A stretch of DNA of 38,891 bases from a virus (IMGVR_UViG_2576861092_000011:1-38891), one strand, 5' to 3'. Shown: positions 1,349 through 38,891, numbered from the stretch's first letter. Notes: generated by a model not told the origin, from the letters alone. Program-made: numbers and translations.

Positions 1349-2416
1349 ATGAAACATATACAATCTTTAGATGGTGTGAGAGGTATTGCGGTGCTCATTG
1401 TAATGCTTTTTCATGCCAAAGTTTCAGGATTTTCTCTTGGTTGGTCTGGAGTTCCGCTGTTCTTTTGCTTATCTGGTTTCTTAATTACCTCAATCCTTAT
1501 CGAGGATAAAGACTCTGGTTTTAGTAACTATATTAAACGATTTCTTATAAATAGATCGCTTAGAATATTCCCGTTATTTTATGCTTACCTACTTGTTAAC
1601 TTTATTCTTCTAATTGCAACTGGGAAACCAACGGATGGTTATTTGTGGTTTATAACTTATCTACAAAACTATTATATAGGAATAAATGTTACAACACCTG
1701 GAATTTTGGGGCACACCTGGTCTCTTGCAGTGGAAGAACAATTTTACTGGCTTTGGCCTCTATTCATATTTTTCATAAACAAAAAGAATATGAATCTGAT
1801 TTTTATCATACTAATAATAACATCAAGTATATCAAGATATTTTATATTTCAAATCACTGATGGAAACCCATACATTGTAAATGTAACTCTTATCAGTTGC
1901 ATTGACATGTTAGTTCTTGGTGCTCTGTTTTCAAAGATAAAAGATGATAAGTACGCATATGAATCAGGATTTTTAACTTTTATAGCAGGTGTTGGGCTGG
2001 TTCTTAATGGAATAAATTCTGTTGGTCTTAATGCTTTTTGGAACCCTGTAGATTGGGCTGGGAAATGCTGGTATATGTTTACAGCGTTTGGGATGATTTT
2101 TTCATCTGCAATTTTTTTCATTTACAAGTGGAGTGTGCTAGGGAAAAAACAAATAATAACAAAAGCATTATCATTAAAGCCATTAACATTTACAGGAAAG
2201 ATAAGTTATGGTTTGTATATGTGGCATTTGCTGTGTTTTTCAATTGCAAACAAAATGTCCTCCTTGTTTGGGGTAAACAATAATGCTGTGATAATAGCAT
2301 GTGGGTTTGCTATCGCATATATAGTATCAATTGCATCATACTATCTTTTTGAAATACATTTTCTTAAATTAAAAAGAAAAACCAATAGAAATGAAGACAA
2401 TTTAGTTACAGTATAA
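1349..2416 (+). CDS. oac: Acyltransferase-3 family integral membrane protein, probable O-antigen O-acetyltransferase (lysogenic conversion)
   Basis: 355 aa, multi-pass hydrophobic; N-terminal motif LDGVRGIAVLIVMLFH typical of OafA/Oac acyltransferases. Markedly AT-rich versus flanking phage DNA. Sits between int and tailspike as in Sf6. Confidence 0.8.
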   Translation: MKHIQSLDGVRGIAVLIVMLFHAKVSGFSLGWSGVPLFFCLSGFLITSILIEDKDSGFSNYIKRFLINRSLRIFPLFYAYLLVNFILLIATGKPTDGYLWFITYLQNYYIGINVTTPGILGHTWSLAVEEQFYWLWPLFIFFINKKNMNLIFIILIITSSISRYFIFQITDGNPYIVNVTLISCIDMLVLGALFSKIKDDKYAYESGFLTFIAGVGLVLNGINSVGLNAFWNPVDWAGKCWYMFTAFGMIFSSAIFFIYKWSVLGKKQIITKALSLKPLTFTGKISYGLYMWHLLCFSIANKMSSLFGVNNNAVIIACGFAIAYIVSIASYYLFEIHFLKLKRKTNRNEDNLVTV

Positions 2417-16519: not shown

Positions 16520-18000
16520 GGTATGTTGTAGCTTGAGTAATCAATCTCTTTAGGATCTTTGATGTCTCGCATCTGTATTGCAAAACGCCTCATCATGTAG
16601 CCATAGCGAACAGCAGAAAGGATGTCGTCATTTAGCTTGACGATCTTCCCGTTCTCATCGCGGTGATACAGGCGAAACTCTTCAAAGAATGGCTCGCAGG
16701 TGTTAAATACCTTGAAACGACCGTCGAGCATCATGTCGCGTATCTCTGCTATCCCGGGTTCGACCGCATTACCTCCATCAGGCCATGTTGCATGATCTGG
16801 CAACATGTCGAACCCAGCGTCGGCGTATTGTTCCTTGAGCTGAGCGCCGCCTCCCTTTTCGTGCTGATGCCCGTCATGAGGCCAAGCCGTAGGGGTGTTT
16901 TTGCTCCATGCTTTAACAGCACTCCATGCCTCTGTCGCCTTCTTCTGTTTGGCCTTCCAGACGCGAGAAAGATAAATCACGTCCTCGTCTTTATCCCACC
17001 AAAGCTGGATGTGTGCCTGTGGGTGATCCCATCCGAAGTCCATTGCATTGATGACGTAGAAGTGATCAGGACACTCGAACGGCTGACACTTAATCGTCTC
17101 TTCCGGTATCTGGAAGATTCGACCGCTACCCATCGTAGGAATACCGCGAGCACGCGCCTCTCTCTCATGCTCAGGATAGGATGTGATGATTTGCTCTTTC
17201 TGCTCGTCGGTGTAGTGCTCAGCGTCATAGATGGTCATGTTGACCACTTTCTGCGACTTGCTGGGATTCTTCAGGAACTTGGTAACAACGTCAGACATCC
17301 CCATCAGCGGGGTAAACGTCAGAATTGAGAATTGCCCGTATTTGTTGGTACGGGTAAGACCTTCGCCATAAATGCTGTATGGTGGCTCTTCGTCAAACCA
17401 CACGCCGTGAATTGTGTCACCCTGCCAGCGTGCACGGCCTTGCGAATATGGTTTGAAGTAGCAGATTGAAATGCCATCTTCAACGCCATCAGCCGTGTGA
17501 TGCTTAACCAGAAGGTGATCAACAAGGTTCGGAAAGAAAGGAGACTTCTTCCAGCTAATGATGTCTTCTTTCGGTATGGAACCGTAGCCAGGCTCATCAT
17601 TCTCTTCGATACGACCGCACAGGATACGTTGAGTCGTTTTGGTTACCGTCTCGTTTGTCTCGCCGCCAATCCAGAAAACAACAGGCTCATAGAAACGCTT
17701 ACCTTTCCACTCTCCGCCATATTTACCATCAGCCGGATATCCTTTTGTTCCCGGATAACGCCCGGTAAGGTGAAACGCGACTTCGGCAGCACCAGTAAAT
17801 GACTTACCAAGCTGGTTACCAGCCATAAAACAGCGCTCTGGATAGTCATGCCCGGCGTCGATGAACTCACGCTGTTTGCTGTATGGCGTAAATTCATATA
17901 GCAGGTGTGTGTTCCGGTAGTTCTCTTCTTCTTCGAGTAGCTCGAGCAATTCGATTTGCTCTTCGTCGCTCAGGTTATCAAGAATCGCGTCCAGTTCCAC
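16504..18000 (-). CDS. Terminase large subunit, P22 gp2-like
   Basis: 498 aa; Walker-A-like GNQLGKS near N-terminus; overlaps the small-terminase stop. Confidence 0.9.
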
Positions 18001-18466
18001 GGTTGAATAGCTCCTTGATACGAGAGCATCGCTTATCGCGATCTCCCTTATCAGGTGTCACGTCTTCAACTTGCGACTGCTCTTTGAGGCCCAAATCACG
18101 GGCGATGATGTTAGCGTTGAGAAGGTCAGCGGCTGCGCCAGAGAATTTCTGGTCGTAGATGATGTCTTCCGCTCGTGATGTGACGTCAGAAAAACCTTCC
18201 ATTGACCGGAATGTTCCCCACGTTTGCCTGGTGATATCAAGGAAGGTACACAATCCTGAAATAGTCATGGCTCGCATCTTAGGGACGTTAGCCTTAATTA
18301 TTTCTCCCTGATATGAAAATACCTTACCCTCCCATAGCGGGTTATCATCAGCCCACTCGAAGTATTCACAACAAGCAGCCCACAGCGCCTCGGGCGATTC
18401 GAATTTAGGATTTCGCCCATGACTACTGCGGGCCTCCCAAAATCGGTTGCCCTTTGGTGCTGCCAT
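17978..18466 (-). CDS. Terminase small subunit, P22 gp3-like
   Basis: 162 aa; N-terminus [38 protein letters not shown] and C-terminus matching my recollection of P22 gp3. Confidence 0.85.
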
Positions 18467-18471
18467 ATTGA

Positions 18472-18960
18472 TTATTTCCCTTCTGTTTGCTTCCCAGCGG
18501 GGAACGAATCAACGCTGCCGCCGGAATAGCAGTCAAGATCAATTGCGACTTGTACCGCTTCTATCGCATTTTTGCCACAGTGCATGGCAGTGCGAGCAAT
18601 CAGCCCACCACTACCAATGGCGTAAGGTTCAACCTGTAGCGAAATACTCGCCCGCGTTTCGCCTTTCTCTTTTGAGATGATGTAAGCACGACCAGCACCG
18701 ATGATAGCAAGCGCTGTGAAAGAGAATGTCGGGAGAAATTCTGATGCATACGTCAGGTTATTCTTAAGCAGTTCCTGCAATTCCATCTCCGCGCCGCAAT
18801 CACCAGAACAACCTAATGCAACCACTTTACTGCCGCAAACCTCCCACCCAGATTCTGGCGGTGTGTAAATCTTTTGTTCTGTATACGAACACACAACATC
18901 ACCAGATGATGCCTGGGTGTCAGATGCCAGGGTCTTTCCATCCCATGCAATAGTGGTCAT
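18472..18960 (-). CDS. Ntn-hydrolase, HslV / 20S-proteasome beta-subunit-like peptidase (phage accessory gene)
   Basis: 162 aa. [23 protein letters not shown] puts Thr immediately after Met with the TTI..G...LASDT pattern; a Lys about 30 residues in; AIGSGG motif. These are the HslV/proteasome-beta hallmarks. Confidence 0.6.
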
Positions 18961-18961
18961 A

Positions 18962-19204
18962 TCATGCTCCGGTAGTGAACAGGTCTAACGCTTCCTTCGA
19001 TTTACGCACCGCTTCGATAGTGCGAGATGTGAAGTCTGGATTTGCACCGCCATCGTTGTAGTGCAACTTGAACAATTCCAGTTTCAGCTGGTCAGCACCA
19101 ATGAATGCAAAAGCTTCCTCTGCCGCTGAATTGTTCTTAGATAGCAGTCGGTAAATTTCTAACTTGAATTTCTGTTCTTCAGTCATGGGAATAATCTCTG
19201 CCAT
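18962..19204 (-). CDS. Small hypothetical protein (80 aa), P22 orf80 position
   Basis: ORF with GGAG RBS; stop abuts the start of the HslV-like gene, suggesting translational coupling. Confidence 0.5.
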   Translation of the reverse strand: MAEIIPMTEEQKFKLEIYRLLSKNNSAAEEAFAFIGADQLKLELFKLHYNDGGANPDFTSRTIEAVRKSKEALDLFTTGA

Positions 19205-19507: not shown

Positions 19508-19987
19508 TTAAATGATTTGCCAGTCTTCAGCCATCAGGTCGCCAATGGATGGAACCCATGTAGCAAGGCGGTTCTGTGAGTTTTTCAATACAAGCGTGTC
19601 ATTGAAAGTTGGCTCGCCAACATATTCGCCAAAGCCATAACCCAACGCAGACGCTAATTTTCCCCCTTTCACGAGATAAACAAACTGGTCTTTCCCATTC
19701 CATCCTGCCCGCTGCAAACTTTTGCCCTGTTTTAACGCTTCCATGGCAAGGCCGAAACTTAGCCCTGATACCGGACGATAAGCCTTTTCGAATACTTCTT
19801 TTGGACTCCAGCTAACGTAGCCATCAAAGCGATCGGTGTTAGGTTTTCCGCCATCCAGATATTCAACCAGATAGCCTTCGTCCTCGCCGTTTTCTCCGGC
19901 AGGAAGCTGCCAGCCACGAAAATCGTTATATGCCTGTCTCGTCATCGGAAAGGCGTTAATCAGTTTTACGCCAATATGCTGGGTCAT
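19508..19987 (-). CDS. DUF2829-domain protein (Tad2-like fold) with N-terminal extension
   Basis: C-terminal ..FGLAMEALKQGKSLQRAGWNGKDQFVYLV...DLMAEDWQII matches the DUF2829 signature as I recall it. Start set at internal ATG 19987 (AGGT RBS); the 200-aa track ORF upstream extension looks spurious. Confidence 0.6.
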   Translation of the reverse strand: MTQHIGVKLINAFPMTRQAYNDFRGWQLPAGENGEDEGYLVEYLDGGKPNTDRFDGYVSWSPKEVFEKAYRPVSGLSFGLAMEALKQGKSLQRAGWNGKDQFVYLVKGGKLASALGYGFGEYVGEPTFNDTLVLKNSQNRLATWVPSIGDLMAEDWQII

Positions 19988-20008
19988 AAAATTACCTATG
20001 CAGTTGGG

Positions 20009-20036
20009 AATAAAAAGCCCCGCAAATGCGAGGCTA
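20009..20036 (-). terminator. Rho-independent terminator after the lysis cassette
   Basis: Minus strand AGCCTCGCATTTGCGGGGCT followed by TTTTATT, between Rz stop and the DUF2829 gene start. Confidence 0.55.
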
Positions 20037-20209
20037 AATCCTGGTATTTGTAATGAACTGGCTCTTATCTCAACGCAGCCCCTTACCGCGCGCCATATGC
20101 TCAACTTCAAGCATCAGCAATGAGATGTTTAATCTGGATTCACTACGGAAGTGATCACCACCCTGTCTACAGAGCCAGATGTGAAGGATAATGAGTAAAA
20201 TTATCGCTA

Positions 20210-22139: not shown

Positions 22140-22168
22140 AATTTACCCAAGTTTATTCAAAAAGTCAA
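22140..22168 (-). promoter_or_regulatory. Late promoter pR' (-35 TTGACT, 17-bp spacer, -10 TAAATT) with downstream AACGAT pause/qut element
   Basis: Minus strand TATTGACTttttgaataaacttgggTAAATTtgacccAACGATggg, about 45 bp after Q stop, same layout as lambda pR'/qut. Confidence 0.6.
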
Positions 22169-22210: not shown

Positions 22211-22834
22211 TTAACGTGTGACCGCATTCAAAATGTTGTCTGCGATTGACTCTTCTTTGTGGCATTGCACCACCAGAGCGTCATACAGAGGCTTAACAGT
22301 GCGTGACCAGGTGGGTTGGGTAAGGTTTGGTATTAGCATCGTCACAGCGCGATATGCTGCGCTTGCTGGCATCCTTGAATAGCCGACGCCTTTGCATCTT
22401 CCGCACTCTTTCTCAACAACTCTCCCCCACTGCTCCGTTTTGGCTATATCAACCGCACGGCCTGTACCGTGGCAATCTCTGCATCTTGCACCCGGCGTCG
22501 CGGCACTACGGCAATAATCCGCATAAGCGAATGTTGCGAGCACTTGCAGTACCTTTGCCTTAGTATTTCCTTCGAGCTTTGCCACACCACGGTATTTCCC
22601 CGATACCTTGTGTGCAAATTGCATCAGATAGTTGATAGCCTTTTGTTTGTCGTTCTGGCTGAGTTCGTGCTTACCGCAAAATGCAGCCATCCCGAATCCG
22701 GCCTGTGATTGTGCCATCCCCATAGCAGCCATCACATCAGTACCGGAAAGAGAGTCAGAAGCCGTAGCCCGTGGTGAGTCGCTCATCATCGGGCTTTTTG
22801 GCGAATGAAATTTAGCTACGCTTTCGAGTCTCAT
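22211..22834 (-). CDS. Q: Late-gene antiterminator Q (lambda type)
   Basis: 207 aa; matches recalled lambda Q ([29 protein letters not shown]..., Cys-rich zinc-binding region). Confidence 0.9.
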
Positions 22835-37643: not shown

Positions 37644-38891
37644 CTATATTGCTGAAGGTACAGGCGTTTCCATAACTATTTGCTCGCGTTTTTTACTCAA
37701 GAAGAAAATGCCAAATAGCAACATCAGGCAGACAATACCCGAAATTGCGAAGAAAACTGTCTGGTAGCCTGCGTGGTCAAAGAGTATCCCAGTCGGCGTT
37801 GAAAGCAGCACAATCCCAAGCGAACTGGCAATTTGAAAACCAATCAGAAAGATCGTCGACGACAGGCGCTTATCAAAGTTTGCCACGCTGTATTTGAAGA
37901 CGGATATGACACAAAGTGGAACCTCAATGGCATGTAACAACTTCACTAATGAAATAATCCAGGGGTTAACGAACAGCGCGCAGGAAAGGATACGCAACGC
38001 CATAATCACAACTCCGATAAGTAATGCATTTTTTGGCCCTACCCGATTCACAAAGAAAGGAATAATCGCCATGCACAGCGCTTCGAGTACCACCTGGAAT
38101 GAGTTGAGATAACCATACAGGCGCGTTCCTACATCGTGTGATTCGAATAAACCTGCATAAAAGACAGGAAAAAGTTGTTGATCAAAAATGTTATAGAAAG
38201 ACCACGTCCCCACAATAAATATGACGAAAACCCAGAAGTTTCGATCCTTGAAAACTGCGATAAAATCCTCTTTTTTTACCCCTCCCGCATCTGCCGCTAC
38301 GCACTGGTGATCCTTATCTTTAAAACGCATGTTGATCATCATAAATACAGCGCCAAATAGCGAGACCAACCAGAAGTTGATATGGGGACTGATACTAAAA
38401 AATATGCCGGCAAAGAACGCGCCAATAGCATAGCCAAAAGATCCCCAGGCGCGCGCTGTTCCATATTCGAAATGAAAATTTCGCGCCATTTTTTCGGTGA
38501 AGCTATCAAGCAAACCGCATCCCGCCAGATACCCCAAGCCAAAAAATAGCGCCCCCAGAATTAGACCTACAGAAAAATTGCTTTGCAGTAACGGTTCATA
38601 AACGTAAATCATAAACGGTCCGGTCAAGACCAGGATGAAACTCATACACCAGATGAGCGGTTTCTTCAGACCGAGTTTATCCTGAACGATGCCGTAGAAC
38701 ATCATAAATAGAATGCTGGTAAACTGGTTGACCGAATAAAGTGTACCTAATTCCGTCCCTGTCAACCCTAGATGTCCTTTCAGCCAAATAGCGTATAACG
38801 ACCACCACAGCGACCAGGAAATAAAAAAGAGAAATGAGTAACTGGATGCAAAACGATAGTACGCATTTCTGAATGGAATATTCAGTGCCAT
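37644..38891 (-). CDS. cscB: Sucrose:H+ symporter (LacY-family oligosaccharide permease), host gene
   Basis: 415 aa, 12-TM MFS pattern; matches my recollection of E. coli CscB (MALNIPFRNAYYRFASSYSFLFFISWSLWWSLYAIWLKG...). Window ends at its start codon. Confidence 0.85.
   Translation of the reverse strand: MALNIPFRNAYYRFASSYSFLFFISWSLWWSLYAIWLKGHLGLTGTELGTLYSVNQFTSILFMMFYGIVQDKLGLKKPLIWCMSFILVLTGPFMIYVYEPLLQSNFSVGLILGALFFGLGYLAGCGLLDSFTEKMARNFHFEYGTARAWGSFGYAIGAFFAGIFFSISPHINFWLVSLFGAVFMMINMRFKDKDHQCVAADAGGVKKEDFIAVFKDRNFWVFVIFIVGTWSFYNIFDQQLFPVFYAGLFESHDVGTRLYGYLNSFQVVLEALCMAIIPFFVNRVGPKNALLIGVVIMALRILSCALFVNPWIISLVKLLHAIEVPLCVISVFKYSVANFDKRLSSTIFLIGFQIASSLGIVLLSTPTGILFDHAGYQTVFFAISGIVCLMLLFGIFFLSKKREQIVMETPVPSAI

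Follow-up and report, generated by a model that had tools for sequence, protein, structure and literature searches.

The DNA stretch IMGVR_UViG_2576861092_000011:1-38891, called the window here over its whole length of 38,891 nucleotides, holds a complete P22-like prophage, and between its lysis and packaging genes lies a gene for a 162-residue relative of HslV and the proteasome beta subunits. By family and by fold, the protein is placed with great confidence in the proteasome-beta/HslV superfamily of N-terminal nucleophile (Ntn) hydrolases, and it belongs to PPH, a family described computationally by Fuchs, Alva and Lupas in 2021 (PMC8665760). The reading favoured here, and judged fairly probable, is that of an active peptidase made late, working independently of the unfoldase HslU and giving the phage an accessory benefit at the stage of head assembly and packaging. 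The family is already known (PPH, PHROG 1040) and is already annotated in a P22-like phage, Dewey, whose copy is named 'peptidase HslV family protein', and the window gene is a further member. A preliminary description of the locus knew of no described role for such a protein in P22-like phages; the family itself is not new. The gene and the parts of its product that matter for this reading are as follows.

18472-18960, minus strand: coding sequence of the 162-residue PPH-type proteasome/HslV-like N-terminal-threonine peptidase homologue, stop codon included
18955-18957, minus strand: Thr2 codon, predicted N-terminal nucleophile after Met1 removal, aligned to HslV Thr1 (Thr in 129 and Ser in 9 of 139 representatives)
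18919-18921, minus strand: Asp14 codon, equivalent to Asp17 of the triad, aligned to HslV D17 (139/139)
18871-18873, minus strand: Lys30 codon, equivalent to Lys33 of the triad, aligned to HslV K33 (139/139)
18802-18804, minus strand: Gly53 codon, in a G-x-S-G-D segment that falls in the hhalign columns of HslV GFAGG, the region of the oxyanion-hole glycine (137/139)
18607-18615, minus strand: Gly116-Ser117-Gly118 codons, in an A-I-G-S-G-G sequence identical to that of HslV (G116 100%, S117 89%, G118 99%)
18721-18762, minus strand: non-helical loop, residues 67-80, in place of helix H2 of HslV and proteasome beta (AlphaFold2 model, and alignment gaps against HslV H2)
18820-18864, minus strand: clade-specific insertion after the catalytic Lys, about residues 33-47 (alignment A1), a small extra hairpin in the model

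The open reading frame (ORF) runs over 18472-18960 from an ATG start to a TAA stop with 162 codons for amino acids, as the preliminary description had it; the strand, which had been left unstated, is the minus strand. The hallmarks named there are all present, namely the Thr directly after Met (M1-T2-T3-I4), the N-terminal motif (residues 2-15), the Lys at position 30 and the AIGSGG sequence, which is part of Y-A-I-G-S-G-G at residues 113-119. The gene is real: its minus-strand frame has a ratio of non-synonymous to synonymous substitution rates (dN/dS) of about 0.10-0.14 against diverged homologues, the same ratio being uninformative among near-identical copies because the substitutions are too few, and two shorter ORFs on the opposite strand of the locus (77 and 55 residues) are without support.

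The window protein matches PHROG 1040, the 'peptidase HslV family', at E 2.8e-37. A search of the PDB with its sequence alone (phmmer) returned no match, and significant homology was obtained only with a family profile, not with single-sequence searches of the window protein. This profile, alignment A1, is made of 41 homologues with 30-88% identity, 16 of which match PF00227 individually. Against the PDB it finds HslV (E 6e-9), archaeal proteasome beta (E 4.6e-8) and BPH, the beta-proteobacteria proteasome homologue (E 4e-5). Its hhalign comparison with E. coli HslV, the sequence of which was checked against PDB entries 5ji3 and 1e94, gives a probability of 95.4% at E 1.7e-8. A resemblance of this degree greatly exceeds chance.

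Structure prediction points to the same relatives. The AlphaFold2 monomer model has a predicted local distance difference test (pLDDT) of 95.2 and a predicted template modelling score (pTM) of 0.89, with only the last 10 residues or so disordered. In the fold comparison HslV is nearest, with a score of 17.4 and a root-mean-square deviation of 2.0 Å over 138 residues, followed by proteasome beta subunits (16.0), BPH (15.9), Anbu and the proteasome alpha subunits (12.0 and about 12, respectively) and connectase (9.9). The model has helices at residues 57-66, 119-127 and 132-142 only, and about 14 residues of HslV, those of helix H2, are without a counterpart in the window protein when the A1 profile is aligned to HslV by hhalign. 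Two of the checks that had been suggested at the outset, the profile search and the structure prediction, bear out the peptidase assignment as regards the superfamily and the full catalytic set. The protein is not a canonical HslV, as it departs from HslV in helix H2, in the pocket for HslU and in its fit to the curated models.

The published account of PPH speaks of proteins with some 140 residues that are encoded by tailed phages and prophages and fall in group I with HslV and BPH; they are without a propeptide, retain the catalytic triad and have no C-terminal S12/H5 (PMC8665760). The loss of H2 is given there as unique to PPH and RPC (PMC8665760). The window protein has the same beta-sandwich core with the Thr/Ser1-Asp17-Lys33 triad and the oxyanion Gly, it is a small subunit from which H2, a propeptide and the C-terminal S12/H5 are all absent, and it is encoded in a prophage.

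The catalytic residues of the window protein stand in register with those of HslV in the hhalign comparison: T2, D14, K30, G53 and G116-S117-G118 fall on Thr1, Asp17, Lys33, GFAGG and GSG, respectively. An oxyanion role has been assigned to the glycine equivalent to Gly53 (PMC8665760). Conservation was counted in the 139 best fetched representatives of clusters at 50% identity, taken from a profile search that covered 1.84 billion cluster representatives exhaustively. This search gave 12,094 matches at E<=1e-3, 8,490 at E<=1e-10 and 437 at E<=1e-30, nearly all of them 140-150 residues long and aligned from residue 1 (family median, 148 residues). As canonical HslV would be expected there only at about E 1e-4, by extrapolation of bit scores, the set at E<=1e-10 is essentially the PPH family. 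Since the catalytic residues are 89-100% conserved and dN/dS is about 0.1, the predicted enzyme is likely to be catalytically competent.

Conservation extends to the N-terminal dodecapeptide MT[TV]IAWDGKTLA (residues 1-12), Trp64 and Pro77, which are 91-99% conserved among the 139 representatives. Judged from the aligned sequences, the constraint on these positions, W6-D7-G8 included, is far greater than a catalytic triad would need. The clade of the window protein departs from this pattern in a few places. It has Leu64 where 95% of the family has Trp, a second insertion at residues 96-99, and the insertion at 33-47, which is absent from the family core of about 145 residues (at least 70% of the representatives have gaps at 37-42 and 45-47) and in which DSSP assigns strands to residues 40-41 and 44-45. 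Some of the profile matches (P0098, P0109, P0117 and P0211) are longer, with 190-308 residues that comprise an N-terminal PPH domain and a C-terminal extension; these may be the 'RPC' relatives of Fuchs et al.

The immediate surroundings of the gene in the window are these.

18962-19204, minus strand: orf80/DUF2560 gene, the upstream flank (PF10834, E 5.5e-37)
18961-18970, minus strand: orf80/PPH junction, read directly from the sequence
17978-18466, minus strand: P22 gp3-type small terminase gene (terS), the downstream flank (PF16677, E 8.2e-31; PHROG 606, E 2.4e-70)
20016-20035, minus strand: strong intrinsic-terminator-like hairpin directly after Rz/Rz1, with an 8-bp stem, 6 G-C pairs and then TTTTATT
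19508-20110, minus strand: Tad2-like/DUF2829-domain gene, two genes upstream of the PPH gene, a 200-residue ORF with the domain in its C-terminal half (PF11195, E 1.5e-21; PHROG 872)

Both neighbours are those that had been named beforehand, orf80 and the small terminase. At the upstream junction, the TGA stop of orf80 (18962-18964) is followed by a single base and then by the ATG of the PPH gene (18958-18960), and a GGAG Shine-Dalgarno-like element lies within the 3' end of orf80 at 18967-18970, 7 nucleotides upstream of that ATG. From this arrangement, the PPH gene is probably translationally coupled to orf80. On the downstream side, its TAA is separated from the ATG of terS by 5 nucleotides.

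On one strand, the genes follow each other in the order Q, holin, lysozyme, Rz, Tad2-like gene, orf80, PPH, terS, large terminase (TerL) and portal. On the PPH strand, the stretch from 22168 to terS contains no sigma-70-like promoter, and the closest promoter-like site is the one at 22168, upstream of the lysis genes. No terminator-like hairpin flanks the PPH gene. Its G+C content of 0.49-0.50 equals that of its flanks, and its base composition carries no signature of horizontal transfer. The gene order suggests that the PPH gene is a cistron of the Q-dependent late transcript. The Tad2-like gene, orf80, PPH and the packaging genes are downstream of the hairpin at 20016-20035, and would thus presumably need Q-mediated read-through. 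The label of a 'classic moron', which had been given to the locus, was rejected, as the gene lacks a dedicated promoter and terminator, shares the G+C of its flanks and lies only 1 and 5 nucleotides from its neighbours; what remains of that claim is the non-core insert in a variable slot.

The Tad2-like domain, which is of the Thoeris-anti-defence type, lies in the accessory stretch between lysis and terminase genes that also holds PPH. The ORF at 19508-20110 opens with a TTG and its homology begins at residue 40, so that translation probably starts at Met42 (19987). The PADLOC defence models gave no match for the PPH ORF or for its two upstream neighbours.

The mechanism proposed here sets out from the fold, the catalytic residues, their conservation, the position in the operon and the rarity of the gene, and from these its chemistry, timing, independence of HslU and benefit to the phage would be the following. 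Coupled to orf80 and just ahead of the terminase genes in a Q-antiterminated operon, PPH would be made late in lytic growth, as the order of the genes suggests. A Met that precedes Thr is removed by methionine aminopeptidase, and homology suggests that the host enzyme would in this way take off Met1 and expose Thr2. By the same homology, Thr2 would act as the N-terminal nucleophile together with Asp14, Lys30, the oxyanion segment of Gly53 and the G116-S117-G118 loop, and would cut peptide bonds. Structure and sequence suggest that it would do so without the host unfoldase HslU. For the phage, PPH would be an accessory that it can do without but profits from while heads are assembled and packaged, the substrate being a host or a phage protein; confidence in any particular substrate is low. 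A head-maturation protease was also considered and rejected, since heads of the P22 type need none and more than 99% of the P22-like phage isolates lack the gene.

Several points weigh against this reading. The window protein taken alone has no Pfam match at E<=1, PF00227 included, and the only NCBIfam model that it matches is TIGR03634, at E 0.0049 and with 16.5 bits against a cut-off of 224, the HslV models being missed. Its membership of PPH follows from the published description of traits and not from clustering with the representative WP_042125023.1. The peptidase activity, the oligomeric state and the substrates are all inferred, and literature searches on PPH found no experiment on any member. 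Connectase has the same fold and is a ligase rather than a protease, so that the fold need not mean proteolysis. The argument from the HslU pocket, given below, would be as good as an alignment at 26% identity and a monomer model allow. Finally, the near-invariant dodecapeptide hints, by its sequence, at a constraint from a partner or a specific substrate that the reading leaves unaccounted. For phage HslV-like proteins more broadly, these searches yielded only remarks in genome annotations (PMC7823757) and one localisation study, in which a different HslV-like paralogue, from Erwinia phage RAY, was followed as a fusion to green fluorescent protein (bioRxiv 10.1101/2023.02.24.529968); neither has a direct bearing on the window protein.

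The position of PPH in other phages was surveyed in 80 IMG/VR loci, which fall into 40 clusters at 70% identity. In the enterobacterial clade, whose members are 44-99% identical to the window protein, PPH lies 3-9 nucleotides upstream of small terminases that belong to four unrelated PHROG families (606, 1206, 51 and 1482) and are followed by TerLs of different types. A same-strand ORF of at least 380 residues is found within 2.5 kb downstream of PPH in 19 of the 40 clusters, and in 16 of these 19 it is a head or packaging gene (11 TerL, 2 portal and 3 head-morphogenesis or virion proteins). PPH lies between TerL and portal in two T1-like groups with genomes of about 46-48 kb, and overlaps the start of TerL in one metagenomic phage; in other phages it is found among tail genes, upstream of holin or, in jumbo phages, alone. 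No conserved partner gene stands beside it, the immediate neighbours differing from one phage group to another. PPH is biased to the boundary of the packaging and head modules, which is clear by plain counts, and these counts do not separate a hot spot for accessory genes from a functional link.

This bias and the invariant residues are what an enzyme of another kind would lead one to expect, one that processes a single target in a sequence-specific manner, in a non-ring or otherwise unusual assembly, and that cleaves this target or, like connectase, transfers it. Such a target might be found among host proteins of immunity or stress that are triggered during packaging, or among the head and packaging proteins of the phage. 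The almost invariant MT[TV]IAWDGKTLA, W64 and P77 would suggest a fixed substrate groove or a partner; without H2, stacked rings may not be able to form; PPH lies at the edge of or inside the head/packaging module in 16 of the 40 clusters, beside unrelated terminase families; a gene with a Tad2-like anti-defence domain lies two genes away in the window; and connectase provides a precedent. In its boldest form, PPH would be a sequence-specific viral effector, brought by the loss of H2 to a non-canonical assembly and deployed when heads are assembled and packaged; this would explain both the near-invariant dodecapeptide and the recurrent place beside unrelated terminase, portal and head genes, and is regarded as a speculative possibility. 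It might, for example, destroy host sensors of terminase, portal or capsid, or process a conserved host or phage protein, and these examples are equally tentative. Taken as a whole, a dedicated processing enzyme is considered unlikely, and the late, HslU-independent peptidase is preferred to it.

Independence of HslU is itself thought somewhat likely, because H2 and the residues of the pocket for the HslU tail are missing. In the HslV of E. coli and H. influenzae, the C-terminal tail of HslU is held by F54, F57, A79/K80 and Q114 (PMC6429459). The hhalign alignment places F54, F57 and Q114 on M59, Q62 and S107 of the window protein, in columns that vary across the family, and A79/K80 fall inside the deleted H2. 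No AAA+ gene stands beside PPH in the window, and none was found among the 35 nearest large ORFs of the 40 non-redundant loci. For one jumbo phage genome in which the window protein has a homologue, the authors list two HslV-like ORFs and no HslU (PMC7823757).

The same evidence bears on the proposal of HslV-like rings built from the phage protein and docked on the HslU of the host, which would yield a hybrid, ATP-dependent protease of altered specificity for folded host or phage proteins. HslV is indeed the nearest relative in sequence and among solved structures, and it shares with the window protein the Met-Thr start and the lack of a propeptide. The known hosts of the close relatives are all Proteobacteria, and Proteobacteria possess HslU. 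HslV alone has hardly any activity unless HslU is present (PMC6429459), and a related enzyme might need an activator too. This proposal is nevertheless held to be improbable, as helix H2 is gone and A79/K80 with it, F54, F57 and Q114 are not conserved, the absence of H2 is a published peculiarity of PPH and RPC, and no co-evolving ATPase or adaptor was found in the neighbourhood of the 40 loci. The preliminary description had offered a partnership with HslU or a dominant-negative role, and the anatomy of the protein, with H2 absent and the pocket residues changed or deleted, lends support to neither; insofar as an alignment can tell, this comparison makes both ideas less probable.

As a dominant-negative decoy, the protein would assemble with host HslV or sequester HslU and in this way shield phage proteins, with a purpose analogous to that of T4 PinA on Lon. 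Its homology to HslV and a late, presumably abundant expression alongside the structural genes would suit this role. A decoy would have no need of catalysis, yet across thousands of clusters the conservation of the nucleophile, the Asp, the Lys and GSG stands at 89-100%, and at about 21-26% identity to HslV and with H2 and the pocket residues missing, mixed rings or the capture of HslU would be unlikely, so that a decoy is deemed highly improbable.

The gene is a rare, non-core accessory in a variable slot between lysis and packaging genes. It was found in 10 of 5,426 complete E. coli genomes, and among the 127-130 or so P22-like phage isolates with orf80 or this terS only Escherichia phage Dewey has it; a universal core gene, which the preliminary description had named as a case that would refute it, is not what this distribution describes. 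The two flanks, orf80 and terS, occur together in a few hundred records, about 240 by a rough extrapolation from an evenly spaced sample of the ranking, and the slot between them is mostly empty, with a spacer of 35 bp. In E. coli ST131 MB1159 (L006, 3013-3489) it holds two small hypothetical ORFs of 59 and 95 residues, and in Dewey (L001, 5702-5989) a hypothetical ORF, also of 95 residues, followed by PPH. The slot is a multi-allelic cargo site.

In E. coli Res13-Lact-PEB17-18 (L092, NZ_CP062855.1), orf80 and PPH, with 99.4% nucleotide identity, precede a different terS and a TerL of the PBSX type. The gene in the terS position there (2570-2995, 141 residues) bears the RefSeq name 'ubiquitin carboxyl-hydrolase', which is probably a mis-annotation. 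Since the terminase module differs behind conserved orf80 and PPH, there is a mosaic junction directly after the PPH stop, and orf80 travels with PPH. More widely, PPH homologues were found in 113 phage records and 138 IMG/VR loci, with phage neighbours in the metagenome contigs. That PPH could be a decaying passenger, a recent and functionless or degenerating insert without a role for the prophage, agrees with its rarity (10/5,426 E. coli genomes, 1/~130 P22-like isolates) and with the slot being empty in most relatives, and is dismissed as the least probable alternative, given that the ORF and its catalytic residues are intact in all copies with dN/dS of about 0.1, that the Shine-Dalgarno element is good and the operon tightly packed, and that many assemblies of E. 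coli and Salmonella contain copies with 96-99% identity.

The remainder of the window agrees with a P22-like prophage. It includes an integrase (1-1158), an acyltransferase, a tailspike with the P22 head-binding domain, portal, TerL, TerS, PPH, orf80, the Tad2-like-domain gene, Rz/Rz1, lysozyme, holin, antiterminator Q (22211-22834), NinG, DnaB, a cI-like repressor and, at the far end, a host gene of the lacY family. The interval between integrase and tailspike is the usual place for an O-antigen-modifying gene of lysogenic conversion, and in the window it holds the acyltransferase (Acyl_transf_3; 1349-2416, plus strand; PF01757, E 4.5e-25). In the nin region, immediately upstream of Q, there is a calcineurin-like phosphoesterase of 246 residues (PF00149; 22831-23571, minus strand) that resembles a NinI-type Ser/Thr phosphatase. 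The sugar/proton symporter of the LacY family (37644-38891, minus strand; PF01306, E 1e-193) is host DNA, so that the prophage ends before about 37.6 kb.

The description 'first truly viral' among members of the proteasome family has been applied to PPH, which is itself very large, with about 8,500 clusters at 50% identity against the 324 sequences of the 2021 description. Interest lies in the function of this large and strictly conserved family of viral proteasome homologues rather than in the window gene itself, which is an added member. A copy in a P22-like prophage of E. coli places the family in a highly tractable phage-host system, and its recurrent placement at packaging and head modules is a concrete, testable lead.

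Set against known systems, the window protein differs from HslV (ClpQ) in the loss of H2 (about 14 residues), in its unconserved pocket residues and in an identity of only about 21-26%; it stays below the threshold of the curated HslV and Pfam models, and its gene is a phage-borne accessory with no hslU partner, whereas HslV is a gene of a heat-shock operon. Compared to the 20S proteasome beta subunits (PF00227), it is much shorter and is without a propeptide, an alpha-subunit partner, H2 and H5. The Thr follows Met directly, unlike in 20S beta subunits, where a propeptide is autocatalytically removed, and no alpha-type proteasome gene was found near PPH, either in the window or in the neighbourhoods of the 40 loci. 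BPH, which bacteria encode on the chromosome, retains H1-H4 and differs further by a long acidic pore loop and a weaker profile match (4e-5). Connectase, the archaeal proteasome-like ligase, has likewise lost part of the first helix pair, and in it the fold supports a specific, non-degradative reaction. The closest likeness is to PPH as published. The window protein, with 162 residues against about 140-148, is longer than these, has the insertions at about 33-47 and 96-99 and carries L64 in place of Trp, and the description of the family makes no mention of the fixed place that the gene takes immediately upstream of terS in enterobacterial prophages, P22-like ones among them. It shares with them the compact proteasome-like fold, the Met-Thr start without a propeptide, the Thr/Asp/Lys triad and the oxyanion Gly, the absence of H2 and of the C-terminal S12/H5, the setting in phages and prophages of Proteobacteria, and HslV and BPH (group I) as nearest relatives.
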